From a virus (Duplodnaviria; Heunggongvirae; Uroviricota; Caudoviricetes), in IMG/VR virus record IMGVR_UViG_3300036453_000040: 64,000 bases of DNA; one strand, written 5' to 3'. Numbering within the stretch: the first letter of the stretch is position 1; every line of letters begins with the position of its first letter. Position numbers and translations under genes: made by a program. Under the pieces are notes generated by a model that ran no database searches, had not been told where the DNA came from, and worked only from the letters and a program-made list of their open reading frames with translations. Shown here piece by piece: positions 9,345 through 59,655 of the stretch.

Positions 9345-9361
9345 TGTAGGCTGAGAATAAG

Positions 9362-10291: not shown

Positions 10292-10297
10292 AAAGCC

Positions 10298-10306
10298 ATC
10301 ATACCA
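10298..10306 (-). promoter_or_regulatory. Extended -10-like element (TGgTATGAT) ending 6 nt upstream of the ATG of the 9362..10291 array gene
   Basis: Coding-strand sequence CATGGTATGATGGCTTT-ATG. The 32-nt spacer is conserved between array members. Confidence 0.4.
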
Positions 10307-10323
10307 TGTCGCCCGAGAATAAT

Positions 10324-11250: not shown

Positions 11251-11256
11251 AAACTC

Positions 11257-11265
11257 ATCATATCA
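11257..11265 (-). promoter_or_regulatory. Extended -10-like element (TGaTATGAT) ending 6 nt upstream of the ATG of the 10324..11250 array gene
   Basis: Coding-strand sequence CATGATATGATGAGTTT-ATG. Confidence 0.4.
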
Positions 11266-11282
11266 TGTTGCCAGATAATAAT

Positions 11283-13130: not shown

Positions 13131-13136
13131 AAACCC

Positions 13137-13145
13137 ATCATATCA
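13137..13145 (-). promoter_or_regulatory. Extended -10-like element (TGaTATGAT) ending 6 nt upstream of the ATG of the 12192..13130 array gene
   Basis: Same architecture as the other array spacers. Confidence 0.4.
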
Positions 13146-13162
13146 TGTTGCCCGAGAATAAT

Positions 13163-15019: not shown

Positions 15020-15025
15020 AAAACA

Positions 15026-15034
15026 ATTATACCA
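15026..15034 (-). promoter_or_regulatory. Canonical extended -10 element (TGGTATAAT) ending 6 nt upstream of the ATG of the 14075..15019 gene
   Basis: Coding-strand sequence CTGGTATAATTGTTTT-ATG. It sits in the 20-nt spacer after the stop of the upstream paralog. Confidence 0.45.
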
Positions 15035-15039
15035 GAAGC

Positions 15040-15984: not shown

Positions 15985-16128
15985 AAAACAACTCTACCAC
16001 GGAACGAACCCAATATACAAGCCCAATATTCGCTTGCCGTCCGCATGGGTATTACTATCAGAGCACAAGCGAATATGCTGATGAGAGCATATTTAAAGCC
16101 TATTTTCTGCCCTGCATTTGACAAGGTA

Positions 16129-16137
16129 TGGTATAAT
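16129..16137 (+). promoter_or_regulatory. Extended -10 element (TGgTATAAT) upstream of the zinc-ribbon/Vsr-like gene
   Basis: ttgacaaggtatggtataattagaat. The ttgaca is too close (8 nt) to act as a -35, so activity would rely on the extended -10. Confidence 0.4.
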
Positions 16138-16180
16138 TAGAATATGCCTCACCTATACAACCACGGAGCTTGGTAACCAC

Positions 16181-34958: not shown

Positions 34959-35000
34959 CACCCCCTATACCTACTATGGTATAGGGGGTGCCTTGTTTTT
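34959..35000 (+). terminator. Rho-independent terminator (13-bp GC-rich stem plus T-run)
   Basis: caccccctatacc-tactat-ggtatagggggtg ccttgttttt. Confidence 0.55.
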
Positions 35001-36465
35001 AGCTGATGTTTTTGCTGATCCATTTAACGCCATCCGCTTGCGTTCTAAATGAATCAGAGTATTGAGCCTTGCGAGCTTTAGTTAAAGCTTCTTTCATCCA
35101 TGGGCCAGGCTTTCGAGTAGGGAATGCTGCCATCATGTTTTCGCCATTTACTAAGTCTTTCTCAGCAGAGTCAGCAATTCCCAGTTTTTCAGCTTTAGCT
35201 AAGATACGGCTCCCCTGCTTAGCGTCACCAGTTGCCATCTCATACAAAGCCCAATCTCGGATGCTTGTGTTATTGGGCATGTCATGAGACCAATTACGCA
35301 AAGAGGTTTTGCCTTGCTTTTGTGGAACTTTGAGTTCTGTAATATTAAAAGCATTATTTTTTTCTTTATCTCCCACGGTTGTAGTGGTAAGAAACTTACG
35401 CCTGTTCTTTGGGTTTAAGCGCTGAGAGATAGTCGCAGAAAGCAAAGCTACCCTCTTGTTCTGTGGTACTGAGCCATTGTCAATAAGTTTTTGCATGCGA
35501 CGAACATTACGGTACAATTTGGAATCGTTTATTTCTGTCAAACCATCAAAGTTTTGATCCCATTCTGTTTCTTTCAAAAGACGAAGGGCTTTATCTGTAC
35601 GCTTCCCCTTTTCGTACAATTTCTGGAATTCCATTTGTACTCGCTCAGTTGCAAGATCTGCAAACGCTGGTCGGAGTGATTTAGCTTTTTCAACAGTATC
35701 AGGGTGTAAGTCCATGCCGAAACGTGAAGCCATTTGTACTCCCCTGAGTACACGCAGCGGGTCCTCATCAAAAGCATCTGAAACATGACGTAGTTGTTTA
35801 GCTTCGATATCCTTAAGCCCACTATGCTTGTCAATGATAAAACCTAACTTATGAGAGTACATAAGAGCATTAATTGTGTAATCACGTCGAGCGGTTGCCT
35901 CTTCCAATGATAGGTCAGGGTTCACTTCTACAGCGAATCCTTTATGACCGTCGCCTATTTTGCTATCAGTGCGAGGTAAGGAAACATCAAAGTCTTCATC
36001 ATCAATACGAATTTTGAGTACTCCGAAAGATTTTCCTACCTCATCCACATGTCCAAGCTTACGGAGTGACTTAATAATAGAATCTGCCTGTCCGCCATAA
36101 ACCTCAATGTCGATATCCTTTGACGGCAAGCCTAGAAGTGCATCTCTAACGCTACCACCGACAATGTAAGGCGAGAAACCATCGTTTTCAAGCTGACGTA
36201 AGACTGCTACAGTATGAGGCGTTAGATCCATTACATAGGTTCTGACATTGCCTAGATCTTTTTTCTCATCATTGAGTGACTCAATTTTTGAAGTAGCATC
36301 TAAAAGCGCTGACTCACTTTTCTTACGTTGTTTATCTGTTAGCCCTTGGCCCAGCAGTCGAGCAGCATGATACTGCTTCTGAGCCTGTAGGTTTCGTTTC
36401 ATAACCCCATACGGGTTATTTTCGTTACAGCGATGACGGCCTTCATTATCAATTGCTCTACACAT
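34999..36465 (-). CDS. cca: Class II tRNA nucleotidyltransferase (CCA-adding enzyme or poly(A) polymerase family)
   Basis: Head-domain motifs YIVGGSVRDALLG...DIDIE, RRDYTINA and DPLRVLRGVQMASRFG. There is an 80-aa N-terminal extension. Confidence 0.75.
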   Translation of the reverse strand: MCRAIDNEGRHRCNENNPYGVMKRNLQAQKQYHAARLLGQGLTDKQRKKSESALLDATSKIESLNDEKKDLGNVRTYVMDLTPHTVAVLRQLENDGFSPYIVGGSVRDALLGLPSKDIDIEVYGGQADSIIKSLRKLGHVDEVGKSFGVLKIRIDDEDFDVSLPRTDSKIGDGHKGFAVEVNPDLSLEEATARRDYTINALMYSHKLGFIIDKHSGLKDIEAKQLRHVSDAFDEDPLRVLRGVQMASRFGMDLHPDTVEKAKSLRPAFADLATERVQMEFQKLYEKGKRTDKALRLLKETEWDQNFDGLTEINDSKLYRNVRRMQKLIDNGSVPQNKRVALLSATISQRLNPKNRRKFLTTTTVGDKEKNNAFNITELKVPQKQGKTSLRNWSHDMPNNTSIRDWALYEMATGDAKQGSRILAKAEKLGIADSAEKDLVNGENMMAAFPTRKPGPWMKEALTKARKAQYSDSFRTQADGVKWISKNIS

Positions 36466-36513: not shown

Positions 36514-37317
36514 CTAGTTTGCAGCTTTTAAACGCACTAAAGTTGCATGTTTTTTACTGATAGCTTCGTGGCTATTCTTATTAGGGTTATTCAATAACTG
36601 GTTTGGTACTACTTCTAAGATGACAAATCTCATATTACGAGGCAATAAGTGCTCTTGCTCTTTGTGAGCATTAGCATGCCCGAAGCTGGACAAGGGGGCA
36701 CCGCTAGACGTTTCGATCTCATAAACAATGTTTGAAAGACCAGAATCCTTACCATTCAAAAGCTCTAAGTATTGCTCACGATTCTTAATTCCGAACGTTC
36801 CCGTAGACGGAGGAAGATCCTCATACGATTCGGGCAAAAAATCAAATAACGCTTCAGGGTTAGTTGTCGTTGACATGTAGCCTTCAATTGTTAGCTCTTG
36901 CCCAACTTTAAACTTGTTGCTTACAAAATCAGCAGATTCATCTGGAGTTGCGAAGTTGTTATCAAATAATTTAGTTGCCCTATAAACAATCTTGCTCTTT
37001 GTGCCTTCTATTTTTTTATGTTTTGCTAATGCTGTATCAATTTTTGTCATCATCGTTTTAACGTCATGGCTTTGAACACCGTAAAGATGCTCCCCAATTT
37101 GGGTATAGGACTGGTTCGCATAAGAAGCTAGCGCTTCTTTTTCTGCATCAGTTAGCAAAAGAGAATAGTTCTGTGAGTCTCTAAGAGTTTTGTTGATATC
37201 ATTTGCAGGGTTAAAATTAAACGTACCTGTTTTTAAATCTAATGTACTTGCAAAATTAACTCCATGCACACGACAAATAGCAGGGATATTAGCTCGACAT
37301 GCAATGGGTTTAATCAT
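36514..37317 (-). CDS. C3-like (R-S-E class) mono-ADP-ribosyltransferase domain protein
   Basis: KIVYRATK provides the catalytic Arg. GYMSTTT is the STS motif. EQEHLLPRN is the Q/E-x-E motif followed by LLPR, as in C3 exoenzyme. There is no signal peptide. Confidence 0.6.
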   Translation of the reverse strand: MIKPIACRANIPAICRVHGVNFASTLDLKTGTFNFNPANDINKTLRDSQNYSLLLTDAEKEALASYANQSYTQIGEHLYGVQSHDVKTMMTKIDTALAKHKKIEGTKSKIVYRATKLFDNNFATPDESADFVSNKFKVGQELTIEGYMSTTTNPEALFDFLPESYEDLPPSTGTFGIKNREQYLELLNGKDSGLSNIVYEIETSSGAPLSSFGHANAHKEQEHLLPRNMRFVILEVVPNQLLNNPNKNSHEAISKKHATLVRLKAAN

Positions 37318-42828: not shown

Positions 42829-43491
42829 TTAGCTTAAAAGAGAAGTGAACCCGTTTAAAGCGAAGTCATCTCGTCCTCGCCATGATGCGCTCGTTTGAAC
42901 GTGGTTAGCTCGTACAAATTTTGCAACATGTTGTCCAAACTCGCTATATGGAATCATGCCCGCATCACGCAACACGAACCCTTCTGAGACTGTGGAGTCT
43001 AAGACCTTGCCCCATGCTTGGGTAGCTTCCTTATAGCTTGTACCGCGATACAGTGTTGGTACAACGGGCAGTCCCAGCATGCTAGCGAACTCACTCATGT
43101 CATCGAAAGAGAGCAAGTTGTTGTTCTCATCCCAAATCCCGAATACATATAAAGGCCCCTCAAGTGAATCGTAAGCTACTGACCTGCGAGCTTGAAGTGA
43201 CTCTCCTGTTACTCGCCAACCCGTAGGAATATCAAAGCGTACCTGACTCCAGATTCGCTTCGCTAACGTATCCCAAGCGTGAGTGCCAGAATCAAGAGAG
43301 CGAGCATGGAAATAATCAGGGTAAAGGGAGACGTTTCCGCCGTCAAGTTTCTCAGTTACTACAAGTTCAATGCCGCTCTCTAAATAAGCAAGGGCAGAAG
43401 CTGAAGCCATCTTGTCATCACTGGTCATGCCTTCAGAAAAGGGCAAGTGTGGCGTACGAGGATATTTATAACGCATAGTTGATTCACTCAT
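42829..43491 (-). CDS. ATP-dependent RNA ligase family protein (KxDG nucleotidyltransferase, minimal Rnl type)
   Basis: KYPRTPHLP. Motif I TEKLDGGN. Motif IV-like EGFVLRD. Motif V-like AKFVRANH. Confidence 0.6.
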   Translation of the reverse strand: MSESTMRYKYPRTPHLPFSEGMTSDDKMASASALAYLESGIELVVTEKLDGGNVSLYPDYFHARSLDSGTHAWDTLAKRIWSQVRFDIPTGWRVTGESLQARRSVAYDSLEGPLYVFGIWDENNNLLSFDDMSEFASMLGLPVVPTLYRGTSYKEATQAWGKVLDSTVSEGFVLRDAGMIPYSEFGQHVAKFVRANHVQTSASWRGRDDFALNGFTSLLS

Positions 43492-43699: not shown

Positions 43700-45193
43700 C
43701 TACTTCACTAGTGGAAATAAGACAGTATCCCTGATTCCCTTGTTAGAAAGAATCATAATTAAACGGTCAATTCCCATGCCAATACCTCCAGTTGGAGGCA
43801 TTCCGTATTCTAATGCTTGCAGGAAGGACTCATCTAGAGCCATGGCTTCATCGTCACCACGCCCAGCAAATCTAGCTTGTTCAACTAGACGCTCGCGTTG
43901 GATAACAGGGTCAACAAGTTCTGAGTACCCTGTTGCTACTTCCATACCAGCAATGTAAAGGTCCCACTTTTCTACTACTCCAGCGATAGAACGATGATTA
44001 GCAACTAGCGGCGAGCTATCAACAGGGTAATCGAAGACAAAAGTAGGCAAGGTAAGGTTAGGCTTAACGTAAGATTCCCACAGTTCTTCAACTAGCTTTC
44101 CTCTTGTTGGAGCTTGAATCTTGATATTGCGAAGATCAGCAAGGCTTACAATTTCGCTAAGCGGAGTTAGAGGAGTAATTTCAACCCCAGAGGCTTCACT
44201 CAAAGACTCATACAAAGAAATGCGCTGCCACGGGTCGTTTAAGCTCCCGAGGTTCTTCTTGACTTCAGCTAGGGTTTCAGCTGTAACATATCTACCAATA
44301 TCATGGGCAGACTCCTTGATAACGGCCTCTACACGATCTGCCATCCTATTGTAATCAGAGTAAACTTCATAAGCTTCAAGCATAGTAAACTCAGGAGAGT
44401 GAGTTGAATCCATTCCCTCGTTACGGAAGTTCTTGTTAATTTCAAATACTCGGTCCATGCCGCCAACAACAGCTCTCTTCAAAAAAAGCTCTGGAGCAAT
44501 ACGTAGGTAAAGGTCTTCGTCAATAGCATTGCTATGGGTTACGAACGGGCGTGCAGAAGCGCCCCCATGGAGAGTTTGCAAGATAGGGGTTTCGACTTCA
44601 AGGTAGTCATCCTCCTCGAACATTCTACGAATTCTTGAAATAACCTTTGAACGAAGAATTGCTTGGTTGCGAGCTTCACTACTGAGAATCAGGTCAAGGT
44701 AACGTTGACGAGCGCGAGTTTCATCATTCAAGTCAGAATGCTGGTTGGGCAGAGGCCGAATAGCCTTAGAAATCACACCCCAAGTAACCACAAAGATAGA
44801 CAGTTCACCTGTCTTAGAGGTGGAAACAAGGCCCGTAACAGTTACATGGTCACCAAGGTCAACCTTCTGCCTCCAAACAAGGTGTGACTCATCGCCAATT
44901 TCAGCACGAGAGATCAAAAGTTGCATTTGATCTCCACGGCCAGATTGAATAACAGCAAAAGAAATGCGACCTGCGTTGCGAATACTCATAAGTCGGCCAG
45001 CAATAGTGACAGTATCTTCAGTCTTGGTATCAGCTTCAAGGTCAGTATAGTCCATACGGATCTTCGCGATGCTATCAACAGCTTCCGCAAAGTTAACAGG
45101 ATAGGGGTTATGCCCCATCTCAATTAGGTTCGCTCGCTTCTCCAGCCTTACAAGCATCTGGTCTGACGTGTCGGGAGCGCGTGTTGAACTCAT
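43700..45193 (-). CDS. lysS: Lysyl-tRNA synthetase, class II
   Basis: N-terminal OB anticodon-binding domain. Class II motifs. C-terminal GGIGMGIDRLIMIL. Confidence 0.9.
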   Translation of the reverse strand: MSSTRAPDTSDQMLVRLEKRANLIEMGHNPYPVNFAEAVDSIAKIRMDYTDLEADTKTEDTVTIAGRLMSIRNAGRISFAVIQSGRGDQMQLLISRAEIGDESHLVWRQKVDLGDHVTVTGLVSTSKTGELSIFVVTWGVISKAIRPLPNQHSDLNDETRARQRYLDLILSSEARNQAILRSKVISRIRRMFEEDDYLEVETPILQTLHGGASARPFVTHSNAIDEDLYLRIAPELFLKRAVVGGMDRVFEINKNFRNEGMDSTHSPEFTMLEAYEVYSDYNRMADRVEAVIKESAHDIGRYVTAETLAEVKKNLGSLNDPWQRISLYESLSEASGVEITPLTPLSEIVSLADLRNIKIQAPTRGKLVEELWESYVKPNLTLPTFVFDYPVDSSPLVANHRSIAGVVEKWDLYIAGMEVATGYSELVDPVIQRERLVEQARFAGRGDDEAMALDESFLQALEYGMPPTGGIGMGIDRLIMILSNKGIRDTVLFPLVK

Positions 45194-45276: not shown

Positions 45277-45813
45277 TTAAAGAAAAGTTTTTGTAGCTAC
45301 TTTTTCCCAGCTTAGGATACCTTCAGTGATTAGCCATTCCGCAATATGTTTAGTATCAAAACCAATCTCATCACTTTTCAAATTGCTAATTTCTTCTAAG
45401 TCAAGCCAGCGAATATCAGTCGATTCACCTTCTACAGGAAGACCACGAGGAAGTTGGTCAGTTACAAAACCATACCCAAGGTCAGTATGCATGTGTTTGC
45501 CTTCTGCGTCAACTTTATGCGTGTTATGAAGAATAGGAATCGGGTGAATTGTTACGCTGGGGAGGAACTTAATGCGATGATATGGTTGAAGAATCTCAAG
45601 CTGATTAATATCATAGCCTGTTTCCTCAAGCAGTTCATGCGTAATAGCTTCCCATGGCGTCTCGTTTAGTTCAATATGGCCACCTGCTTGTAGAAGTTTG
45701 TGGAATTTTTTATGCATATGCAGAAAAAGTTTAGGTTTCGTATCACCTGTGTAAACGATGAAAGCGCTAGTAGTATGGTCGTGTTGTCCGTCTAAGTCAT
45801 GAATATGTGCCAT
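45277..45813 (-). CDS. Nudix hydrolase
   Basis: Nudix box GGHIELNETPWEAITHELLEETGY. Confidence 0.8.
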   Translation of the reverse strand: MAHIHDLDGQHDHTTSAFIVYTGDTKPKLFLHMHKKFHKLLQAGGHIELNETPWEAITHELLEETGYDINQLEILQPYHRIKFLPSVTIHPIPILHNTHKVDAEGKHMHTDLGYGFVTDQLPRGLPVEGESTDIRWLDLEEISNLKSDEIGFDTKHIAEWLITEGILSWEKVATKTFL

Positions 45814-45921
45814 TATAAACTAATTATAGCAGACAATAGTTAACTTCAAGTACATTAATAGCTTTGTAAAGCGATTAGTCATGGTAAGATAGTAACCTAA
45901 CTAATTATTTTGGAAGAACTT

Positions 45922-46452
45922 ATGTTTAAAACAACTCTTTACCTTGATTTTGACGGCGTACTTAACGCAAAAAAGCCCGCGCATGCTTTAATTTCCAAAT
46001 TTGCAATTGCAATCAAAGACAGTTTGCATCTTGCTTCCATTAACCATATTACTTTCAGTCCCTACGTAATCCAAGATCTAGATAAGTTACGCGTGCAGTA
46101 TCAACTTGAGCTGGTTTGGTTAACCACGTGGAACGAGAAAGATAATGTTCTCAAGTTGTCGGAACCACTTGGTGGCTTACGTAACGGACGGGTACTTGCG
46201 GCTAATCTTAATCAAAAAGCGTTAAACAAGAAAGAATGGACTCAGTGGAAAGCTGACGCAATCATTGCTGACCAGCGGGCCACTCCTCGGCCATTTGTTT
46301 GGGTTGATGATAATGCTCACCAGTTTCATAGCGAAGTTGTTAACGCTGAAACGAAAATAGTTCCTAGTCTTTTCCTCACTCCAGTAAGTTTAACTGGTTT
46401 AACTGTCAGGAATTTAGAGGAGCTAAAAGATTTTCTTAAGTCAATCGGTTAA
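45922..46452 (+). CDS. HAD-superfamily phosphatase-like protein
   Basis: LYLDFDGVLNA contains the DxDG motif. Start moved from the TTG in the ORF track to the ATG preceded by GGAAGAA. Confidence 0.45.
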   Translation: MFKTTLYLDFDGVLNAKKPAHALISKFAIAIKDSLHLASINHITFSPYVIQDLDKLRVQYQLELVWLTTWNEKDNVLKLSEPLGGLRNGRVLAANLNQKALNKKEWTQWKADAIIADQRATPRPFVWVDDNAHQFHSEVVNAETKIVPSLFLTPVSLTGLTVRNLEELKDFLKSIG

Positions 46453-46631: not shown

Positions 46632-46921
46632 TATTCTTCTATGTCCCTCTGCTTTAACTCATAACCAAGTTCTTCAAGACGTTCTATAATCTCTGAAAAT
46701 GTTAGCGGTCGCTCATAAAGAAGCCCGTTCCGCGCTATAACCGAAATAAGAGCCTCAGAATCAGCTAGCTCTTCCTCACTACGTTGAAATATAGTCTCTA
46801 GGACTTTAGGGTATGAGTTTGGGTCATTGCTTGCGTTTTCAGCAAACTCAGCTCTCTCTACGGGTGCGCCAAAAGAGACCGCTAGTTCTTTTGCTATATT
46901 CAGCTTTGTCATTGTATTCAT
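46631..46921 (-). CDS. hypothetical protein
   Basis: 96-aa ORF. Confidence 0.4.
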   Translation of the reverse strand: MNTMTKLNIAKELAVSFGAPVERAEFAENASNDPNSYPKVLETIFQRSEEELADSEALISVIARNGLLYERPLTFSEIIERLEELGYELKQRDIEE

Positions 46922-47043
46922 TACTAAGTAAGTTTATCATAAATAGTATTTTATGCCGCGAGAATTCAATCTTCTTAAGATTTGACTTTTCAACTATGAG
47001 GAGTTATACTAAAACTAAGAGACCAGAGAGAGAAACCCACATC

Positions 47044-47487
47044 ATGAGCATTACCATTAGCGAGAAGTGCGATACCACCCGTGGTTCATACGCAACTAAG
47101 CATGGTATTGTCGTTCTACCTGCCAAAAATATTGGCCTCTCGAAGAAGGAACGTGCTTTTCTTGACCTTGCCTTTAAGATGGCTGAGAGCAGTGAAGTTG
47201 AAAACCGCCACGGCGCAGTGGTAGTTAAGAACGGACGCGTTCTCTCTCTTGGTATCAACAAGTGGCGCAACAAGGGCCTCGAATGTGGCCGTGAAGAATA
47301 TCAGGCAGTGTTGACCACTCACGCTGAGATTGATGCCCTGAGCCGTGTAGCAAACCCTGCTGGCGCGGTACTCTATATCGCACGGGTTGGTGTCGGTGGA
47401 GAAGAACGCATCTCCCGTCCCTGCGTGCGTTGCATGGCTGTTATCGAGAAGCTTGGTATCAAGCGCATCATTTATACTGTCGATTAA
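47044..47487 (+). CDS. Cytidine/deoxycytidylate deaminase family protein (dCMP deaminase or TadA-like)
   Basis: Zinc-binding motifs HAEIDAL and PCVRCMAVI. Start chosen at the ATG inside the longer track ORF. Confidence 0.7.
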   Translation: MSITISEKCDTTRGSYATKHGIVVLPAKNIGLSKKERAFLDLAFKMAESSEVENRHGAVVVKNGRVLSLGINKWRNKGLECGREEYQAVLTTHAEIDALSRVANPAGAVLYIARVGVGGEERISRPCVRCMAVIEKLGIKRIIYTVD

Positions 47488-47736
47488 CCAACAGATCAAC
47501 AAGATGCTAATAAGCATTTGAAGAATCAGTCCTATGGTTCTGGCTCCAAAGATCGCAACCTATTCAGCACTTGAACAGGTTGCGATCTTTGCGTTCCCAG
47601 CATGGATCTCCTCAGTTATTCTAGCGACCCATGCATTCGCAAACATCTTCCATGGCAGCGGTTCGCTTGCTTCGAAGCAGGAACGCTATCTCAGGACCTC
47701 GCGTTACCCCACCGTTAGCTGCTCTTTTTATGCTCG

Positions 47737-48783
47737 CTATTCTTTAGCGATGTATTTGTAGTACCATGTTGAGGGCAGAGTAATCCATAGTTCATGAAGT
47801 GCATCAATGTGTTCAATGTTGGATATTGGCACTTCGTTAACTTGAAGAGAATACAGGAACGCGCTATCCCAGCCCTTACGCATGAAAATATTCACCAGTT
47901 CACGATATGAGATAGCTAAGCCATCATGGAAACAATGGCCTTCGTCTTCTAACGCTATCTTGATCCTATTCGTCAGAAGCATGAATGCCCCGTCCGCCCT
48001 TAAGATGCAAGAATAATCAATGTACGCGGCAATATTTTCTTCGGTTGTATCGAACCCATCCTCTTTGAGATGTGATAAAACAAGTTCCCTCATGGAGAGT
48101 AGCGTACCGATAAACGCACGAGCGGGGATGCTGCTTGTGTCTCTTGATTCGATGATCGCGCTTGAATTCATCATATCAATGGCAGCGCGAGCTAACGGGG
48201 TATCATTGTTTTCAAGAAGAAATCGCGTAATTTTTAATGAATCTTTCACTTCTCCAAGCTGCTTATCGTAAGTGAAAAGGGACAGCATATTTTGAGCTTG
48301 ACCGAGCGAGTATTCCTCGCTGTACTCTCCCTGTAGAAACTCAGATCGTATATCCGAGGATGCTGCTGAATACGCTTCAGCTATGACTTGCCTACGGTCA
48401 GTTTTAACTGTATGGACATATATGTCACTATTAGATACGGGGAGATAGAGGTACCTTGCAAAAGTGCTCGTATCTTGCATATGAAGCTTAGTCCTGTCAT
48501 GTTCAACACGTATGTTAGCCAGCGAATAATACTTTGACAAACCGAGGTCATCTAACGCTTCATAGATAAGAAGAAGCTGCTCTGCTGAGCTAACGATTGC
48601 CTCATCAGTAAGCTCTTGCCTGCGTAAACGGATCAGAGCTACTCTTCGTACTGACATAGCAAAGGTCTCGTTAAGCTGGCATTCTTTAACACTGGGGTTG
48701 AAAGGGGAAACTAAAATCGTAGGGGCAATGGCCGAGCCTATCGTGTCCTTTCTCATGTTCACTTTCTTTGTGTTAGAAACCAT
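47737..48783 (-). CDS. hypothetical protein, paralog of the 48815..49696 gene
   Basis: C-terminal regions are alignable between the two neighbouring genes (IFMRKGWDSAFLYSL...IEHIDALHELW versus IFVKNGWSPQFVFAL...IEMLEALFSIY). Confidence 0.5.
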   Translation of the reverse strand: MVSNTKKVNMRKDTIGSAIAPTILVSPFNPSVKECQLNETFAMSVRRVALIRLRRQELTDEAIVSSAEQLLLIYEALDDLGLSKYYSLANIRVEHDRTKLHMQDTSTFARYLYLPVSNSDIYVHTVKTDRRQVIAEAYSAASSDIRSEFLQGEYSEEYSLGQAQNMLSLFTYDKQLGEVKDSLKITRFLLENNDTPLARAAIDMMNSSAIIESRDTSSIPARAFIGTLLSMRELVLSHLKEDGFDTTEENIAAYIDYSCILRADGAFMLLTNRIKIALEDEGHCFHDGLAISYRELVNIFMRKGWDSAFLYSLQVNEVPISNIEHIDALHELWITLPSTWYYKYIAKE

Positions 48784-48814
48784 ATTCTCATATTACAGTA
48801 GTGAAACGTTAAAG

Positions 48815-49696
48815 TCAAACTTGCTCCGAGATATGCGCATGAAACCATGCATAAGGTGCAGAGTTATAGATCGAAAATAATGCTTCCAGCATTTCGATAG
48901 AACTAATCTCAGTACGCGAGAGATAAAGCGCAAAAACAAATTGTGGTGACCATCCATTTTTTACGAAAATGCAATATAGTTCTTCGGTTATGTCAACCGC
49001 TAGCTTTTTCTGTATTTCCTGTATAAGGGTATAACCGTTAAGTTCACTCCCATGAACGAGGCAAGCAAAGTCTACATATTGGCTTAAGTTTTCAGGCGTG
49101 ACTTCTACATCATAAGAGGCCATGGTCACTTCTGCTTTGCTTACTGCTCCCGCAAAATGCTGGAGGAAAAGCGATCTCGCCATTCTTAACGCACCCATAG
49201 GAATAACCATACCGCTTTGAGAGGGAGCTAAGGTAAAAAGGTGCCGCGTTTGTTCATCGTTGCTACTCACGTCAGCTAGGGCCAAGGTATCAAAAGCTAT
49301 GAAAGACAACAAACCTGCGCTTAATCTTACTGTTTCGCATTTCTCATCAAATTGAAATAACGAAAAAATCAAGCTCGAAGAAGTCCAGTTTTCGTCATCA
49401 ATGTAAACGTTGTTCTCTTCAGAAGTATAAGGTCTCAGTACTGAATGGGTATCGCTTATTTGAGTTGTTTCTAAATACATGTTAACAACTTGCATTCGAT
49501 CTGAAGCGATAAACGGCTTCAAGTAACCATCGTACTCGTCAACATACATTTCATCTACGCCGAATGAAGCTATCTTAACCATTTCCTGAAAATTAAAATA
49601 ACCAATAAGGCCATCTGCCGCGAAAGCATTTAGAAGACAAGTATAGTTTGTGATTGAAGCTTCTTCCGTTACGGGTGTTGCATCTAAATATGCCAT
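48815..49696 (-). CDS. hypothetical protein, paralog of the 47737..48783 gene
   Basis: See above. Confidence 0.5.
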   Translation of the reverse strand: MAYLDATPVTEEASITNYTCLLNAFAADGLIGYFNFQEMVKIASFGVDEMYVDEYDGYLKPFIASDRMQVVNMYLETTQISDTHSVLRPYTSEENNVYIDDENWTSSSLIFSLFQFDEKCETVRLSAGLLSFIAFDTLALADVSSNDEQTRHLFTLAPSQSGMVIPMGALRMARSLFLQHFAGAVSKAEVTMASYDVEVTPENLSQYVDFACLVHGSELNGYTLIQEIQKKLAVDITEELYCIFVKNGWSPQFVFALYLSRTEISSIEMLEALFSIYNSAPYAWFHAHISEQV

Positions 49697-49867
49697 ATGA
49701 TATATCGTACCTTATATGAGCAAGTTACTCCCTTAATTAGGAGTTGGACAGATATATTTGGGCAAAAAAATTGGCAGTAGGGAGGTCACGTCCCTACTGC
49801 CAAAACTTTGGGGTTCTTTCTGCCTAGCGATTAAAAGCTGACCCGCTAGGCAGAAAGTTTGTTATCG

Positions 49868-50992
49868 CTAGAAGCGAAGCTTAGCTTCCTTTAGGTAAGG
49901 AGCGTACTCGCGGAGTACGGAACCAATGAGTAGAGCGGCCTCAGACTTGGACTCAGACGAGGTGCGAACCTTGTCCATGAGCGGGAAGGCAAGAGCCGTG
50001 CAAACATCGGCTTTCTCACCGATTTTAGCAGCAGCGCCGAAGACCTGCGCGCTAGCCTTGACGTTCTCGCTGTTCATACGACCGAGAATCATGGAAAGAA
50101 TGACATAAACCTCACTAGAGGAACGTGATTTCCAGTCAACCTTTTCGGGGTTAGCAAGAACATCATCATAGTTAGGGAGGTTCAAGCTCTGCTCAAACAC
50201 GGAGAACTGCTGTGCGGCCTTTTCGCCTACGGCACCACGAGTAGCAATAGCACGCGGCGAGCTACCTTCAAGGTACTGTAGCATGGAAACGAGGTTATCC
50301 CAAGAACGGTACGAGGGCCATGCCTTACCTGCTTCTTCGGCATTCTTAGGCATCGAGTTAATGAGAGTCGGGTAAGCCTTAAGGAACGCGACAACCTTAG
50401 CTCGTTCAACGCTTTCACGTTCGCTTACTACGTTGCCCCAAGCAACGGTCATTCCTTCAAGGAAGTCGTTGTTGTCAGGCTCGAAGTGAATGTGAATGAA
50501 ACGGTTAGCCATGGGAGCGGCAAGCGTCCAGCCGTCAGCGGCATCAGAAGCTTCGTTAGCTGCGGCGATCATCCAAACATCATCAGAAAGCGTGTGCTTA
50601 CCAATCATGCGACCCTGGAAAAGCGAAAGGCCAGCAGCCTGCATGGACGGCACAGCGTTAGAAATCTCGTCAAAGAAAATAATTCCCTTGCCAGTACGCA
50701 GAAGTTCTTCCGCCCAGAAGTTGAGAGTGTTATCAGTGATGGTAATTTCGGTACCATCGGGCAGGATTACCTGCTTAAGAGCAGGCAGACCCTGCAAGTC
50801 GGTGCTGTCCATAGTGGACAGAAGCAGAACGTAGAGGGGGAGGTCATACTTTGCTGCAAGAGCGCGAACTAGCGCGGTCTTGCCAACACCTGGAGCACCC
50901 CAGAGAATTGTAGGAACTCCAGACTTGCGACCCGCATCAAGTACGGAAATCGTGTTCTGCATGTTTTTCGAGCGACCAATGTAAGTACCCAT
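49868..50992 (-). CDS. MoxR-like AAA+ ATPase
   Basis: Walker A motif GAPGVGKTAL. Walker B motif IIFFDEIS. Size and organisation of MoxR/AAA_5 ATPases. Confidence 0.75.
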   Translation of the reverse strand: MGTYIGRSKNMQNTISVLDAGRKSGVPTILWGAPGVGKTALVRALAAKYDLPLYVLLLSTMDSTDLQGLPALKQVILPDGTEITITDNTLNFWAEELLRTGKGIIFFDEISNAVPSMQAAGLSLFQGRMIGKHTLSDDVWMIAAANEASDAADGWTLAAPMANRFIHIHFEPDNNDFLEGMTVAWGNVVSERESVERAKVVAFLKAYPTLINSMPKNAEEAGKAWPSYRSWDNLVSMLQYLEGSSPRAIATRGAVGEKAAQQFSVFEQSLNLPNYDDVLANPEKVDWKSRSSSEVYVILSMILGRMNSENVKASAQVFGAAAKIGEKADVCTALAFPLMDKVRTSSESKSEAALLIGSVLREYAPYLKEAKLRF

Positions 50993-51096
50993 TAAATTCG
51001 TGACCTTTCGTTTGGGTTTTTCTTCTTACCTTAAGTATATAGTAAGAGTATGCCCAATGTCAAGCTGAAACGAGTTTTAGTTTAAACTTTTTTAAA

Positions 51097-51516
51097 TCAC
51101 TCACTACTTGAGGTTTTGCCTGTTGCACTATCACGAGTCAGAGTAATATCTAGCTTGCTATCCGTTATAGTAATCACATAATTATTCCAACCACCTACTA
51201 CAGTGATCTTGCTCGTATCGTAGGTAGGAGGAGTTATTGGAACTACAGACAAGTCTTCAGCTATAACATCCTCCACAAGATATGTTTGAATTTCAATGTT
51301 TGCTACGCTTAGGTCACTATTCAGTGTTGCAATTTTTGCTTCTTCCGCAGGTGTTCGACTCTGCTGCACATTAACTTCTTGCACGATAGGCGTAACGTTA
51401 GAACATCCAGATAATGTTACAGCGCTTGCGCTTATCATTATGAAAGCTACTACATGCATGATCTTTTTCTTCATATTAGAAGTATCGGGCAAATCACGAT
51501 AAAGCGCGCGGGTCAA
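51097..51516 (-). CDS. Lipoprotein. Paralog of 51574..52278 with one copy of a beta-rich module
   Basis: Signal peptide plus lipobox LSGC. Module DLSVVPITPPTYDTSKITVVGGWNNYVITITD. Confidence 0.55.
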   Translation of the reverse strand: MTRALYRDLPDTSNMKKKIMHVVAFIMISASAVTLSGCSNVTPIVQEVNVQQSRTPAEEAKIATLNSDLSVANIEIQTYLVEDVIAEDLSVVPITPPTYDTSKITVVGGWNNYVITITDSKLDITLTRDSATGKTSSSE

Positions 51517-51573
51517 TAATCAAAATGCTTAGGTGACGTTTTGATTATTGACCCGCACTAAATGTGAACCAGC

Positions 51574-52278
51574 TTATAGCTTTATCTCCAGAATCCTACC
51601 AGTCTCACTATCATACGTAGAAGAAAGGCCTAACTCTGTATCAGTTATCGTGATTGTATAATCCATCCATCCTCCCTCTACGACAACAACACTAGTATCA
51701 TACGTAGGCGAGGTTACGGGGACTGCTGAAAGGTCATTAGCAATAGGATCATTAACGAGATAGGTAGCCAGATCTATGTGGACATTTTTGAGGTCAGAAG
51801 TTAAAACTTTGGCTTGGTCTAGCTCTGCGTCAACTTCTTCAACGGCGCTCTCTTCTATTTCTGCTAGTGCTGGCTCCTCTGCTTGTTTTTCTGCGGGTTC
51901 TCCCACTCGTTCGCTAGTAGTTATACCGTTTTCGGTGATCGTCAGCATGCCGTCATTCCAAACTACCAGAATGTCATTGTCCTTATCCTCCAACGTAATC
52001 GTATATTTTTCCCAGTTACCTTCCACAGTGATGAAGCTAGTAATAAATGTTGGCCGAGAAATATCAACCATGGATAGGTCTTCTGCTCTCGGATTTTCAG
52101 CGAGATATGCAAGGACTTCTTGATTAGCATGGAGAACATCTTGTTGAATTGAAACCATACCTGTTGGTTCTGTTAATTGTATTGTTTCAGGTGTCGTTGT
52201 GTTAGAACAACCTGAAAGAGTTATGGCGCTTGCGCCTATCATTATTGCAGTTACTACATGTATAATTTTTTTCTTCAT
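51574..52278 (-). CDS. Lipoprotein with two copies of the same module
   Basis: Near-identical signal peptide and lipobox. Modules DLSMVDISRPTFITSFITVEGNWEKYTITLED and DLSAVPVTSPTYDTSVVVVEGGWMDYTITITD. Confidence 0.55.
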   Translation of the reverse strand: MKKKIIHVVTAIMIGASAITLSGCSNTTTPETIQLTEPTGMVSIQQDVLHANQEVLAYLAENPRAEDLSMVDISRPTFITSFITVEGNWEKYTITLEDKDNDILVVWNDGMLTITENGITTSERVGEPAEKQAEEPALAEIEESAVEEVDAELDQAKVLTSDLKNVHIDLATYLVNDPIANDLSAVPVTSPTYDTSVVVVEGGWMDYTITITDTELGLSSTYDSETGRILEIKL

Positions 52279-52427
52279 ATTAGAGGTATCGGTTTAATCG
52301 CAACAAGGAGCTAAGCAAAAACCAAAATACTTTGTATCTATTACCATGTTAAAATAGTCAGTATCTAGAGCATCAAATTAGGGGTATGGAGTGACAGCAT
52401 TATGCTGTCACTCCATACCCCTAATAA

Positions 52428-54707
52428 TTATTCAGCTACAAGGTTGATATAGTTGATAATCTGACGAAGTTTTGCTTCCACCAGATGATCTCCCGCTTCT
52501 GATGTAGTAATAAGGAAGAAACTCTCTGCAACTTCAGCCATGCTGGAAGCTTTTTCAGTAAGAACCTCGTTAAGATCAGCATCGTTGTGCTTGACATAGC
52601 CAGCCCAATAAGACAGGTTAGCCTTACGCTCTTCAACCTTAATGAACTCTGCAATTTCTTCAGGAGTAGCATCCTTCGCATGAGAAGCATCCGCTGATTT
52701 TTTTAGGTTAATCCATTCCCTGACCTGCAAGAACTTTTGATTGTGGACTTCCGCTAGAAGACCCCTTTCTTCAAGAGTTTTATAGTGGAGAATTAGGCGA
52801 TCCACACGGCTGCGCATAGTGTAGCTACCTTGAAGCTTAGTCATTACTTCGTTGAAAGTATAGTTAGACTCAGGTTCATAATGCTCAAGTGCATAAGCGC
52901 GTACAAGTGGTTCAATTTCTTGAGCCGAGGGATACTCAGTGGTAAACTTCTCGATTGAGACGCGCGAATTGAGAAGGAAAATTGGCGTATCTCCAATTAT
53001 CTTTCGAGCGAACCCAAACATTCCACGGGCATTATCACGCTGAGTAATAGTGTAAATATCGTTATCGTCGTCGTGTGAGAACCATGGAAAACTTGAACGT
53101 GAACGATCCTGCTTCATGTAATAAACAGTCTTGTTTTTATTTAGTTCAGCAAGGCGCTCATCCTTCGCATAAATGCGCTCGATCTCACGAGTGCCATCAT
53201 CTTTTGAAGTCAAGAAGTAAGCTACAACTTTTTTAGCAGCAGGAGCTTTATCAAGAACACCGTTCTCCTCTTTGATTCGCTTGCGTTCGTTCTTTGCATA
53301 GACCTTGACAACTTCAATCAGCTTAGAAACAGTCGGGTACTCTTCATTGTGAGCAAAAGCAAACCAATCGTTATCATAGTCTTTTTTGGAGACAATGATA
53401 ACTCGTTCTTTGCCTGTCATTTCACGAATCATTCGAGCATGACGACGAGCAAGCACAGAATTTTCTCTTAGCAGACCATCGTTAAGAACAATCAGGTCGT
53501 AAGTATCCCCTTGGAAATAGTTACGATATGCATAAGTGTAGTTAGAGAAGTAACTTGCCGTGTTTTTAGTAGCCCCACGATAGTTTGACGAGGAAACTAG
53601 CACAGATTGATCCGCTGTCACAAAGTCCTCAGGAATGATTTTACCTCTCCACTTAAGGCCATCGCTCTGCCAGTAACCCATGTCCCTAATAGCAAGGTTC
53701 ATTTCAACAGCTTCACGGGGAGTCTTAGCACGGTTAACGTTAGCAGTGAAATGAACTTCAATTGCTTCAACAAAGTTACGAAGAGCGATCTCAAGAATGT
53801 TCTTCGTTTTATCGCTGTAGAGAAGCTCTTCACGACTCGGGGTAAGGTCAACGGAGCCAATTGGAATGTTCAAGAAAATACGGTGAGCAAACTGAGCTAT
53901 ATGATTGAACTTTGACTTGTTGATCCAAGTATCCTGAATTACATACTTTACTCCACCAATAACAGCGAGGAGGTTGGTTTCGTTATAATTACCCCGCGAG
54001 CGCTGGGAAGCAATCTCGTACCAACCAGCATTATCCTCGTTTGTCATGCCCATAATAGGCGTAAACTTTTCTTCGTTATTCAACGCCGTAGTACTGATAA
54101 CTCCGTTGATACGTAGGGTGCCGCTGGGGAATCCAACGAAAAAGTCGTTTACAAATGCAGTATCAAAAGTATAGTCTGCGTAAGGAATAGTTACTTCCAC
54201 TCCGCTGGGTTCAGTGGTTGCTTCTTCCGAAACGAAATAAAGCAAACCTGCACCTTGGATGTTTTTCTCTACATAAAAATCAAGGCGAAGGCCATCTTTA
54301 ATAGAAACTACGTCGAAACGTGAGGCAATAGCAAGGGCTGACTTTGCGCCAAGTCCAAAGCCGCCAATTTCATCGTTATTATCGCGCTTAGTTGAAGTTC
54401 CATAACGAGAGTAAACATTCGTAATGTCTTCCTTGCTCATACCTGCGCCATAGTCACGAACTACAAGGAAACGTGAACCATAGGTAGGGAGCGTAATGTC
54501 AATAGGAGTATTAATCTTGCTCTTCGTGTGAGAGTCAATAGCGTTGGAAACGTACTCACGCAGGATTGCAGTGTGAGGCTGGGAATATAGGTTCGTCAGA
54601 ACACCCATGATATGCACGAGGGCGCTAGAGTCAATAGACAGGGCAATTGACTCATGGGCCGAAGTATTCTCTAGGGCCTTCTTATCAGTTCTGGATACAG
54701 TCTTCAT
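52428..54707 (-). CDS. Hsp90-like GHKL (Bergerat-fold) ATPase with a large uncharacterised C-terminal region
   Basis: NLYSQPHTAILREYVSNAIDS resembles the Hsp90 N-box. DYGAGM is like the G1 box. IGGFGLGAKSA is like the G2 box. Confidence 0.55.
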   Translation of the reverse strand: MKTVSRTDKKALENTSAHESIALSIDSSALVHIMGVLTNLYSQPHTAILREYVSNAIDSHTKSKINTPIDITLPTYGSRFLVVRDYGAGMSKEDITNVYSRYGTSTKRDNNDEIGGFGLGAKSALAIASRFDVVSIKDGLRLDFYVEKNIQGAGLLYFVSEEATTEPSGVEVTIPYADYTFDTAFVNDFFVGFPSGTLRINGVISTTALNNEEKFTPIMGMTNEDNAGWYEIASQRSRGNYNETNLLAVIGGVKYVIQDTWINKSKFNHIAQFAHRIFLNIPIGSVDLTPSREELLYSDKTKNILEIALRNFVEAIEVHFTANVNRAKTPREAVEMNLAIRDMGYWQSDGLKWRGKIIPEDFVTADQSVLVSSSNYRGATKNTASYFSNYTYAYRNYFQGDTYDLIVLNDGLLRENSVLARRHARMIREMTGKERVIIVSKKDYDNDWFAFAHNEEYPTVSKLIEVVKVYAKNERKRIKEENGVLDKAPAAKKVVAYFLTSKDDGTREIERIYAKDERLAELNKNKTVYYMKQDRSRSSFPWFSHDDDNDIYTITQRDNARGMFGFARKIIGDTPIFLLNSRVSIEKFTTEYPSAQEIEPLVRAYALEHYEPESNYTFNEVMTKLQGSYTMRSRVDRLILHYKTLEERGLLAEVHNQKFLQVREWINLKKSADASHAKDATPEEIAEFIKVEERKANLSYWAGYVKHNDADLNEVLTEKASSMAEVAESFFLITTSEAGDHLVEAKLRQIINYINLVAE

Positions 54708-54863
54708 TCGTATTTCTCCTTGTTTCTCTCTACTTATATTATACGATAGAACCTAGCGTTTGTCAAGCGCAAACTAAAACTAAAGAGTTTATGAACTACG
54801 TTTGACTCTATGAAGTTCTTGTGCTATGATTAACGTAGAGAAGATAAAGAAAAGAGAAACAAC

Positions 54864-56543
54864 ATGACTCGCGGAACAACTAAGCTTACCGAAGAACAGC
54901 AGAAGTTTTATCGCACGCTCCTTATTCGTGCTACGTCTCCCGACCTTGGACAGCCCTACATTGCATATGCTCTGTTCGAGCTAATCCCTGTTTCAGCGCC
55001 TGGGCTTAAGACAATGGCAGTGGATAAGAACTGGCGCGTTTACATTGACTTCGAGTACATGAAAGAAAAGGGCGTTGAATACGCCGCTGGAGTCCTCAAC
55101 CACGAACCTTGGCACCTTCTGCGTGACCACATGCGTCGTTTTGACTCGCTTGATATTCTTGAGAACGGCAGACAGCATAACCATAAGGCATGGAACATTG
55201 CTGGCGACCTCACCATCAACGGTGACATTCCCAAGCTCGTTCCCGAAGATGGTTGCTTCCCTGAAAAGGGACCATTCGTTGATTACCGTCTGAATACTTC
55301 CGCTGAGGACTACTACTCTCAGCTTATGACGGATGAAAAATTCAATCCTCCTGCCTGCCCCGATTGTGGCAAGCCTGAAAATAAGGACAAAGACAAGTCT
55401 GACAAGGGCGAAAACAAGGACAAAGACAAGTCTGACAAGGGCGAAAAGTCTGACGAGTCGGGCGACGGCGAGAAGTCTGACAAGGGCGAAAAGTCTGACG
55501 AGTCGGGCGACGGCGAAAATGAGGGTGACGGCGACGGTGAGGGCGAAGGCTCTGGTGAGGGCGAAGGCTCTGGTGAGGGCGAAGGCTCTGGTGAGGGCGA
55601 AGGCTCTGGTGAGGGCGAAGGCTCTGGCTCTGGCAAGTGCAACACTTGTGGAGAAGAAAATGGTTCTGGTTCTGGTTCTGGTGAGGGTGAGGGCGAAGGC
55701 AGTGGCCTTGGTGGAGTTCCTCAGCCCATGTGCGGTAGTGGTGCTGGAAACAAGATAGGAGATTATGAGCTTAGCGAGGATGAAGCTAAGAGCGTAGATG
55801 CCGAGCGCGGGGACCAGATTCGTCAGGCTGTTGCAACGGACATGAAACAGTATGAAGCTTCTAACCCTGGCAAACTTCCTGGTGGCCTTAAAATTTGGGC
55901 TGATAACGAACTAAAGGCTGAACCTATTGACTGGCGACAGCTTCTTCGAGGACAGATCAAGAAAGCAATCTCCTCGTGGACTAAGGGCAAGATGGATTAC
56001 CGTCGCTCTAAGCCTAACCGTCGCCAGCCTAGCCGTGACTTCATCTTCCCTGCAATGCAGGCTCCTAAGCCGCGACTCGCAGTAGCGATTGACACGTCAG
56101 GTTCACATCTTCACAAGCTTCCCGTAGTAATTGACCAGATTGTCGAACTTACTAAGCAGGTCGGTGTTCGTGGCCGTGATCTACTTGCGTTCGGTGTTGA
56201 TGTTCAGATTACTGACGTGAAGCCCGTTAACGACCCTCGCAAGGTACTCGATGACATGGTAGGCGGTGGAGGTACTGATATGTGTGTTGGTATCGAGCAG
56301 CTTGCAGAACTTGGTCGCAAAAACAAGGCCGACATTGGTATCATGCTTACTGACCTCCAAACGGGTTGGCCTACAGAACGTCCTCAAGGTCCTATGCGTT
56401 ACATTGTCTGCGGCATCGTAGATTCTAGCCAAGAGTGGGAAATGCAATGGGTTGAAAAAGCACGCGAGGCAATCGGTGACTGGGCAGAAATTGTCGTTAT
56501 TGATGTGGACGCAGCTAACGTAGCCGCGAAAAAGCGCCGCTAG
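54864..56543 (+). CDS. Metallopeptidase-like N-domain (HEPWH) plus a VWA-like domain (DUF2201 type), with an acidic KD/GE-rich low-complexity insert
   Basis: HExxH-like [13 protein letters not shown]-like [10 protein letters not shown]. Transcribed divergently from the MoxR-containing operon. Confidence 0.65.
55383..55700 (+). repeat. In-frame short tandem DNA repeats encoding an acidic low-complexity tract
   Basis: ggtgagggcgaaggctct x5 (55536-55625). A 33-nt unit x2 (55383-55448). Repeated gaaaagtctgacgagtcgggcgacggcga units. Confidence 0.7.
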
Positions 56544-58869: not shown

Positions 58870-59655
58870 ATGACTACTACCTTCCCCCCACATGCAGATG
58901 GTTCACGATGCTGGACTCATGATTGTTCTTTAAGGCATGGTTCTAACCTGCAAACTGCAATCAAAAATAACGATTCTAGCGGATACCTAAAAGCACGAGA
59001 AGCAGCAGATCAGAAAGCTAAAACTTCTTCCGCTCAAACTGTTACATATCCCATGCTTGAATACGGTAGCACCAACTATAAGCTTTTCATGGAAAAATCC
59101 GAAGAACTTATGTACCAGTTAGACGGTAAAGAATCAAAAGCCGTCATGGAATACACGGGTTGGTCCTACCAGCAATATTACGAATACCTTGAAGATTCCA
59201 ACAATCAGAACATGACTGATGAGCTTAAACAATCTCTTAGTGAAGGTACTGGGCATCTTGATTCTGTCATCAAAAAAGCAGGCAAGTTAGATAAACATGT
59301 AACTGCATTCAGAGGCGAAAAAGTACCTCAAGGTACTAGTATTGAATCTCACCTTGCTGCGAAATTTCCTGTAGGTCAAGATGTTAACGTAAAACGCTAC
59401 ATGTCTACAAGTATGGACTCAAAAGTTGCATCAGATATCCTTGGCGACAGTGACACCTCCTCCTCTTACGTTCTTGCAATCAAAACTAAAGAAGGAGCCA
59501 TGCTGGGAGAATACCTAAGTGAGCAAGGCCTACGGGAAAAAGAAATACTACTTCCTCGTGACCGCACCTACCGTGTCGAGTCTATTACTTCTGCCGTCAT
59601 CTCATGGGGTGTATCTAAAAAACGCCACACGGTAGTAAACCTCACTCTATTATAG
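58870..59655 (+). CDS. C3-like (R-S-E class) mono-ADP-ribosyltransferase domain protein. Paralog of 36514..37317
   Basis: AFRGE provides the Arg. YMSTSM is the STS motif. EKEILLPRD is the ExE motif followed by LLPR. Confidence 0.6.
   Translation: MTTTFPPHADGSRCWTHDCSLRHGSNLQTAIKNNDSSGYLKAREAADQKAKTSSAQTVTYPMLEYGSTNYKLFMEKSEELMYQLDGKESKAVMEYTGWSYQQYYEYLEDSNNQNMTDELKQSLSEGTGHLDSVIKKAGKLDKHVTAFRGEKVPQGTSIESHLAAKFPVGQDVNVKRYMSTSMDSKVASDILGDSDTSSSYVLAIKTKEGAMLGEYLSEQGLREKEILLPRDRTYRVESITSAVISWGVSKKRHTVVNLTLL

Follow-up and report, generated by a model that had tools for sequence, protein, structure and literature searches.

The region between positions 47,737 and 56,543 of a 64,000-nucleotide (nt) stretch of Caudoviricetes DNA (IMG/VR record IMGVR_UViG_3300036453_000040; the whole stretch is called the window here) holds seven genes, which are best read as two known phage functions interleaved by chance, together with lineage-specific additions. 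The two functions are a homologue of rIIA, which is a GHKL ATPase, and a pair consisting of an AAA+ ATPase and a peptidase–VWA protein. We give this reading a probability of about 0.6. Two features of the region are new: a clade-specific split arrangement, in which rIIA lies between the AAA and VWA partners, and an acidic repeat insert, flanked by Cys pairs, in the VWA protein. The seven open reading frames (ORFs) are the following (aa, amino acids):

54864–56543, plus strand: peptidase–VWA protein, 559 aa, divergent from the other six
52428–54707, minus strand: GHKL protein (rIIA homologue), 759 aa
51574–52278, minus strand: lipoprotein, 234 aa
51097–51516, minus strand: lipoprotein, 139-aa ORF
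49868–50992, minus strand: AAA+ ATPase, 374 aa
48815–49696, minus strand: p293, the 293-aa member of a paralogous pair
47737–48783, minus strand: p348, the 348-aa member of that pair

An earlier sequence-only reading had called these ORFs in this order, and all seven were found at these positions. Its domain calls (GHKL, lipoproteins, AAA+, a paralogue pair, and a protein combining HExxH with a VWA domain that carries a metal ion-dependent adhesion site, MIDAS) also proved correct by motifs and profile scans. Its description of the minus-strand genes as tightly spaced was overstated: the gaps, from rIIA to p348, are 149, 57, 104, 171 and 31 nt, and several contain promoter- or terminator-like signals.

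The 759-aa GHKL protein is, by its sequence, a homologue of rIIA. It matched the family phrog_612, 'RIIA', over nearly its full length (E-value 2.7e-76; residues 7–661 to profile positions 5–629 of 725), and T4 rIIA matched it with 28% identity over 362 aa (E 1e-26, aligned residues 16–356). Its GHKL motifs are intact (E51xxxN55xxD58, D85YGAG and G115GFGLG), and Pfam HATPase_c_3 scored 41 bits (cut-off 25). Among deposited phages, 2730 records matched the protein; the best were Streptomyces phages, in which the gene is annotated as rIIA-like and rIIB lies downstream. The GHKL proteins of the related phages described below were all assigned to rIIA by PHROG, with the match extending to profile position 706–709. 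rIIA peptide patterns searched in IMG/VR gave no confirmed match.

To our knowledge, no molecular mechanism has been established for rIIA. The window protein resembles the rIIA of the T4 and N4 rII modules in its GHKL ATPase and the next ~300 residues, in its size (759 vs 725 aa) and in its position among the early or middle genes of a lytic phage; near rIIA there is a dCMP deaminase gene, here as in Streptomyces phage Larnav. It differs from T4 rIIA in its C-terminal third, where no similarity was detectable, and from both modules in its flanks, which here are a divergent peptidase–VWA gene and an AAA+ gene. An N-terminal GHKL ATPase followed by a variable C-terminal region is the architecture that we find; a published account presents rIIA as a GHKL ATPase whose C-terminal domain varies, and as the core of a counter-defence system that is still poorly understood (PMC7824862). 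Divergent rII modules, that of N4 included, counter lambda RexAB, and counteraction of Rex-type abortive infection has been demonstrated for T4, N4 and other rII (PMC11879866). From its homology to T4 and N4 rIIA, the protein would most likely protect the infection from Rex-type membrane-depolarising abortive-infection or superinfection-immunity systems.

The sequence-only reading had called this protein Hsp90-like and had seen in the region a defence or conflict module. The part of the first claim that stands is the shared GHKL (Bergerat) ATP-binding fold, and only that. The HSP90-family model of NCBIfam (PRK14083) gave 35.9 bits (cut-off 455) and covered residues 38–135 only, PF00183 did not match, and the middle and C-terminal domains of Hsp90 were not found in the protein. 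The possibility, also raised at that time, that it is an HtpG gives way to the matches with phrog_612 and T4 rIIA. A cellular multi-gene module built around an Hsp90-like ATPase could draw on the weak NCBIfam matches of the GHKL domain to the HSP90-family model and to MutL, and on weak matches to PADLOC-DB v2. In the latter, the best scores among the seven proteins were IetA at 1.2e-4, to the P-loop only, and MzaB at 7e-4, to the GHKL domain only; the other five proteins had none, and we regard these scores as noise, no match being significant. Such a module is opposed by the near full-length rIIA match and the lack of Hsp90 domains. It is opposed also by the phage-like content of the window and of all related contigs, and by the species-representative genomes, where no close relative of the AAA+ protein was found. 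The stretch studied is a phage genome, not part of a cell, and we consider a cellular module scarcely credible. What was a candidate bacterial defence island is re-labelled as phage genes of known families and comes off the list of possible new immune systems.

The AAA+ ATPase and the HExxH–VWA protein form, as judged from motifs and profiles, a phage pair of the N4 gp24/gp25 family. The AAA+ protein has a Walker A motif (GAPGVGKT, residues 32–39) and a Walker B motif (IIFFDE, residues 104–109), matched phrog_1297 (2e-55), and gave tblastn matches to N4 gp24 and Serratia phage BF gp212. Pfam AAA (36.5 bits, cut-off 21.2) and AAA_5 (32.2 bits, cut-off 22) both matched, whereas the MoxR-specific models AAA_3 (19.1 bits) and bpMoxR (19.4 bits) stayed below their cut-off of 27. 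Many of its homologues carry AAA_3 or bpMoxR Pfam hits or are labelled MoxR-like at source. The VWA protein matched PF13203 (DUF2201_N; 84.8 bits, cut-off 23.2), PF09967 (DUF2201; 33.3 bits, cut-off 26.4), phrog_1314 (1.7e-39) and N4 gp25 (BLASTP, 2e-07); Serratia phage BF gp213 belongs to the same family. It has an HEPWH motif at residue 80 (H80, E81, H84, H89) and a MIDAS, DTSGS, at residue 410. In an alignment, H80, E81, H84, H89, D410, S412, S414, T471 and D497 were invariant from N4 and Serratia phage BF to the clade studied here. As both the HExxH(x4)H and the MIDAS residues are kept, both activities are predicted to be conserved. PHROGs and RefSeq call this family "HNH endonuclease", a label that conflicts with the domain content we found. 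A sequence search of the PDB with the rIIA, AAA+ and VWA proteins returned no informative relative.

The second new feature lies between the two domains of the VWA protein, where an insert rich in G, E, S, D and K spans about residues 170–290, bracketed by CPDC and CNTC (window 55356–55650). It is encoded by repeats found with Tandem Repeats Finder:

55377–55627, plus strand: tandem repeats with periods of 18–54 base pairs (bp), encoding the VWA insert

The alignment shows the insert to be missing from N4 gp25 and Serratia phage BF gp213, and to be clade-specific and variable in length. The VWA protein of the clade has thus gained, relative to N4 gp24/gp25-type pairs, two CxxC motifs that enclose a hypervariable acidic repeat, and the two Cys pairs possibly form a split zinc ribbon. 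On two near-identical 791-kb contigs (loci L041 and L042) the VWA protein is 628 and 556 aa long. This 72-residue difference lies in the insert, so the repeat expands and contracts fast.

That MoxR-like AAA+ and VWA proteins are paired, as the sequence-only reading had held, is real: this is a known phage pair, linked in most VWA-containing loci outside the clade. Its further statement that the combination is not a described system does not hold for the main components, since rIIA and the MoxR/peptidase–vWA pair are both already known in phages (PMC7824862, PMC4193335, PMC11879866). The 14 core genes shared by N4-like phages include gp24 and gp25, which N4 expresses as middle genes (PMC4193335). 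In jumbo phages, Iyer et al. (2021) described a chaperone–cochaperone pair made up of a MoxR AAA+ protein and a vWA protein, the latter with a metallopeptidase at its N-terminus, and proposed a role for the pair in virion assembly (PMC7824862). The pair in the window shares with these phage-encoded pairs the families phrog_1297 and phrog_1314 and the conserved Walker A and B, HExxH(x4)H and MIDAS motifs. With RavA–ViaA, CbbQ–CbbO, NorQ–NorD and the MoxR/vWA proteins of Acidianus two-tailed virus it shares a MoxR/AAA_5-type AAA+ protein with a MIDAS VWA partner (PMC7824862). It differs from the cellular MoxR–VWA systems in the N-terminal zinc-peptidase domain of its VWA partner and in AAA_3 and bpMoxR scores below the cut-off. 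The AAA+ ring would use ATP to remodel a client protein, perhaps one of the virion or one of the host, which the VWA cochaperone would hold through its MIDAS; the zinc peptidase domain of the cochaperone would then cut this client. We know of no identified client of the phage AAA+/peptidase–VWA pair in any phage.

The arrangement of the two functions was compared outside and inside the clade. For the outside set, AAA homologues at 26–41% identity were collected with their flanks, and rIIA was sought within 7–10 kb. It was found at none of these loci, some 180 in all: 0 of 20 loci in a first IMG/VR set (VWA present in 15), 0 of 80 in a second IMG/VR set (VWA in 66) and 0 of 79 on metagenome contigs (VWA in 51). 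Most of the loci that lacked VWA end too early to show one. VWA lay nearly always directly downstream of AAA on the same strand in IMG/VR, with a gap mostly below 130 nt, and 25 of the 51 VWA genes on metagenome contigs fitted a co-directional downstream pattern within 300 nt. AAA and VWA are adjacent in most of the 132 outside-clade loci that contain VWA, while in the window they are 3.9 kb apart on opposite strands, VWA being inverted and split from AAA by rIIA and the two lipoprotein genes. The closest rIIA relatives outside the clade, those of the Streptomyces phages, lie in an rIIA–rIIB arrangement with no AAA or VWA annotated within 6 kb.

Inside the clade, which comprises seven lineages with AAA identities of 43–87% to the window protein, the order is different. 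VWA is divergent from rIIA, and AAA follows rIIA, in every locus whose upstream side is visible. By AAA identity the loci rank as L034/L035 (87%), L127 (65%), L038 (63%), L036/L037 (59%), L040 (56%) and L041/L042 (43%). The sequence-only reading had named synteny in other genomes as a check on its proposal, and here its core does recur, in seven related lineages, while neither the lipoproteins nor the paralogue pair form a conserved part of a system. The genomes are collinear far beyond the trio, through dCMP deaminase, NUDIX, RNA ligase, synthetase and methyltransferase genes. Between rIIA and AAA lies an insertion hot-spot, occupied by the two lipoprotein genes in the window and L034 and by a gene for a P/Q-rich protein of 355/377 aa in L036 and L127; L127 has an HNH-like gene there as well, and in L038, L040 and L041 the interval is empty. 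The proteins of the trio also change at different rates. Identities to the distant relatives are 55–63% for AAA and 54–61% for VWA against 32–39% for rIIA, which diverges about twice as fast as the other two.

Signals for transcription were sought as pattern matches, and those found at the locus are as follows:

54802–54830, plus strand: promoter-like TTGACT-17-TG-TATGAT, predicted by consensus scan, 34 nt upstream of the VWA start
54738–54766, minus strand: perfect sigma-70 consensus TTGACA-17-TATAAT, 31 nt upstream of the rIIA start; identical in L034
52378–52424, minus strand: hairpin with a 20-bp stem and a weak T tail directly after the rIIA stop; a possible terminator or RNA-processing site
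51034–51063, minus strand: promoter-like TTGACA-18-TATACT (11/12), 42 nt upstream of the AAA start; also in L034
49771–49803, minus strand: canonical intrinsic terminator, a 13-bp stem followed by T7, after AAA; kept in L034

Compensatory changes were seen in L034, one pair in the rIIA hairpin and two in the AAA terminator. Hairpins also follow rIIA in L036, L038, L040 and L041; the last three have weaker promoter-like sites before AAA, and L036 has the hairpin only. These promoter- and terminator-like signals suggest that each gene is transcribed as a separate unit.

Taken together, the trio is most likely an inherited adjacency of two separate functions, because its signals are separate, its members diverge at different rates and the surrounding genome is collinear. 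As all cases fall within one clade and none of the outside-clade AAA loci has rIIA nearby, the association of rIIA with AAA appears to have arisen once. An ancestral rearrangement in the clade would have inverted VWA and left rIIA between the partners, and the resulting order would then have been inherited with the rest of the collinear genome.

Several observations weigh against this account. The adjacency of the trio is kept down to 43% AAA identity while genes nearby turn over, which could reflect selection for linkage. VWA and rIIA have a common divergent control region of 156 bp. N4 carries gp24/gp25 about 3 kb from its rIIA/rIIB, and both gene pairs fit into about 5 kb. No rIIB was found beside rIIA in the window or in the seven relatives, where the genes downstream of rIIA gave no PHROG match to it, and tblastn and phmmer searches with T4, N4 and Larnav rIIB of the whole window, 64 kb being the visible part of the genome, returned nothing below E 0.2. 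This is a departure from the T4 and N4 modules, and the rIIA of this phage may thus have some other partner. Finally, the promoters and terminators are pattern matches, and near-consensus promoters (at least 11/12) number 4 in the window against 2.1 ± 1.4 in shuffled sequences, which is not above chance. The count is not significant alone, so the argument from promoters rests only on their position and conservation.

The first four of these observations would fit a conserved trio that is one functional system, in which the rIIA-like ATPase works with the AAA+ and peptidase–VWA proteins in a clade without rIIB; for example, the VWA-peptidase might capture and cleave a host abortive-infection effector under the control of both ATPases. 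We hold this to be rather doubtful. The link between rIIA and AAA arose once and is seen at none of the outside-clade loci, the Streptomyces phages have rIIA–rIIB with no AAA or VWA annotated nearby, collinearity runs well past the trio, the predicted promoters and terminators are separate, and rIIA diverges about twice as fast as AAA and VWA. A stronger form, which we consider unlikely, is that rIIA has joined the AAA+/peptidase–VWA machine as its third component, so that the trio would be a single counter-defence apparatus with p293 and p348 as its specificity adaptors. If true, such a three-component apparatus would tie the 70-year-old rII puzzle to a machine that uses ATP to capture a host abortive-infection factor and degrade it by proteolysis. 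A clade in which rIIA is locked to AAA and VWA and rIIB goes undetected points to N4, which carries both gene pairs, as an experimental subject.

We return to the preferred reading, two separate functions with lineage-specific additions, to consider the additions. Both lipoproteins have a K-rich N-terminus, a hydrophobic core and a lipobox, LSGC, at residues 21–24 of the 234-aa protein and 35–38 of the 139-aa ORF (the criterion was a signal peptide followed by [LVI][ASTVI][GAS]C). The latter ORF probably starts at an internal ATG at 51474, which would give 125 aa; its orthologue in L034 is 67% identical. The two are paralogues of each other (47–49% identity), the longer with two copies and the shorter with one copy of a ~90-aa orphan domain. 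The 234-aa protein had no match in Pfam, PHROG or PADLOC, and among 5.8 billion proteins only 3 homologues of the family were found, all from the closest relatives. The lipoproteins are thus lineage-restricted additions, not conserved components of the locus. From the lipobox, their probable destination is the host envelope, where they might, for example, serve in superinfection exclusion.

A reading that starts from the lipoproteins makes the whole cluster a phage-borne system of exclusion or defence against competing phages, in which the lipoproteins block entry and the ATPases and peptidase form an intracellular effector arm. It would account for the two intact lipoboxes, for the fast evolution of both the lipoproteins and p293/p348, and for the near-consensus host-type promoter before rIIA, which fits early expression. 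The premise of the sequence-only reading, that GHKL and MoxR/vWA parts occur in conflict systems, and the weak Pfam bpMoxR match also point this way. Yet the lipoproteins are confined to the closest relatives and lie outside the conserved core, AAA and VWA belong to the core genes in N4-like phages, which is untypical of accessory exclusion genes, rIIA homologues are known for counter-defence and not defence, and PADLOC gave no significant match. We judge an exclusion system to be very unlikely.

The second addition, p293 and p348, is a family of its own. The two proteins matched each other over their C-terminal ~180 residues (BLASTP, 3e-13); the conserved C-terminal domain of the family is helical and has the motifs GW(S/T)PxF and PxxW(F/Y). 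AlphaFold2 models were weak, with a predicted local distance difference test (pLDDT) score of 53 for p293 and 62 for p348, and only the C-terminal helical domain was confident; a fold search with the models gave no significant match. Homologues are few: 3 clusters among 5.8 billion proteins, and 7 proteins in a profile search of 1.84 billion representatives, a count that includes both window copies and one probable artefact.

In related loci, a p293/p348 pair follows AAA in L034, and pairs are also present in L004, L005 and L033. In L030 the pair lies beside the conserved dCMP deaminase gene, and the 860 nt that can be seen upstream contain no AAA. L038 has one copy and L040 one weak copy. Compared with L034, p293 is 54% and p348 43% identical while the flanking genes are 86–95% identical; compared with L030, both are ~25% identical while the flanking genes are at 60–82%, except for two small ORFs at 44% and 58%. 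The pair is therefore the fastest-evolving part of the region, and its members are lineage-restricted orphans. This rapid change suggests that they may act in interaction with the host or with competitors. The sequence-only reading had counted the lipoproteins and the paralogue pair as components of its system; both are confined to the closest relatives and located at insertion hot-spots. They are hypervariable orphan families within a conserved backbone, a setting in which counter-defence genes often occur.

Two possible relationships of p293/p348 were rejected. As divergent rIIB they gave BLASTP E-values of at least 0.8 to Larnav rIIB, and nothing with phmmer or tblastn using T4, N4 and Larnav rIIB or with PHROGs. 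Nor are they related to ten tandem paralogues elsewhere in the window. These ten genes (6703–15984, minus strand) lie head-to-tail over 9.3 kb and encode proteins of 264–314 aa with 25–64% pairwise identity; the single copy that was scanned had no Pfam or PHROG match. The artefact in the profile search is P0009, a 1405-aa repeat protein in which the C-terminal profile matched seven repeats with a summed E of 1.4e-07. We take it to be probably an effect of summing over the repeats, which look insect-allergen-like when the sequence is read.

One further gene appears to move around the trio. The window encodes an HNH-like protein of the DUF4379/MTES_1575 type at 16118–17872 (plus strand), far from the locus, and homologues of it lie between VWA and rIIA in L038 (4739–6550) and between rIIA and AAA in L127 (4072–5706). 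It behaves like a mobile homing endonuclease.

The content of the neighbouring ORFs, from PHROG and Pfam scans, is phage-like. They matched ribonucleotide reductase, dCMP deaminase, a replicative helicase, a 1666-aa tail protein, ADP-ribosyltransferases (one Alt-like), an ADP-ribosylglycohydrolase, a DNA methyltransferase, tRNA nucleotidyltransferase, NUDIX, a HAD domain of RNA-repair proteins, a full class II aminoacyl-tRNA synthetase and an SPFH/flotillin protein. In relatives, the homologue of the ORF at 42829–43491 is annotated with an RNA ligase domain (PF09414). The window contained no tRNA genes and no Rfam families, and no near-identical DNA was found among deposited phages; a JGI metagenome contig of 110,710 bp encodes the window proteins. 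The locus is probably part of a block of early or middle genes in a large, likely very large, uncultivated lytic phage.

Relatives of the trio occur on contigs of ~0.6–0.9 Mb, which merit separate attention. L041 (JGI 3300028585 Ga0265797_10000002) is on 791,393 bp and L042 (ENA ERZ27250822 k141_903752) on 791,061 bp; P0020 is on contigs of up to 907,852 bp, P0026 on 617 kb and P0039 on 725 kb. The neighbours of the trio there, of which 21 kb of each were seen, are phage-like (RNA ligase, methyltransferase, PARP and TelA). That contigs of ~791 kb recur in independent samples suggests that they are complete, exceptionally large phage genomes.

In the window, the class II aminoacyl-tRNA synthetase (D/K/N type, 278 bits; 43700–45193, minus strand) lies beside a set of RNA- and tRNA-repair genes: RNA ligase (42829–43491, minus), HAD_SAK_2 (45910–46452, plus), tRNA nucleotidyltransferase (34999–36465, minus) and NUDIX (45277–45813, minus). 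Such gene sets are typical of very large phages. The SPFH/Band 7 and flotillin-domain protein has 602 aa (31077–32885, minus strand). Two ADP-ribosyltransferase-like proteins, distantly related to each other (BLASTP, 3e-06), and one ADP-ribosylglycohydrolase-like protein are encoded by ORFs at 58870–59655 (plus), 36514–37317 (minus) and 28533–29573 (minus). The dCMP deaminase ORF next to p348 (46813–47487, plus strand) has 224 aa when counted from its first ATG. Its true start is probably internal, because the genes of the relatives have 146–169 aa. The convergent 250-nt gap between dCMP deaminase and p348 (47488–47736) contains a hairpin with a 14-bp stem that could act as a two-way terminator.

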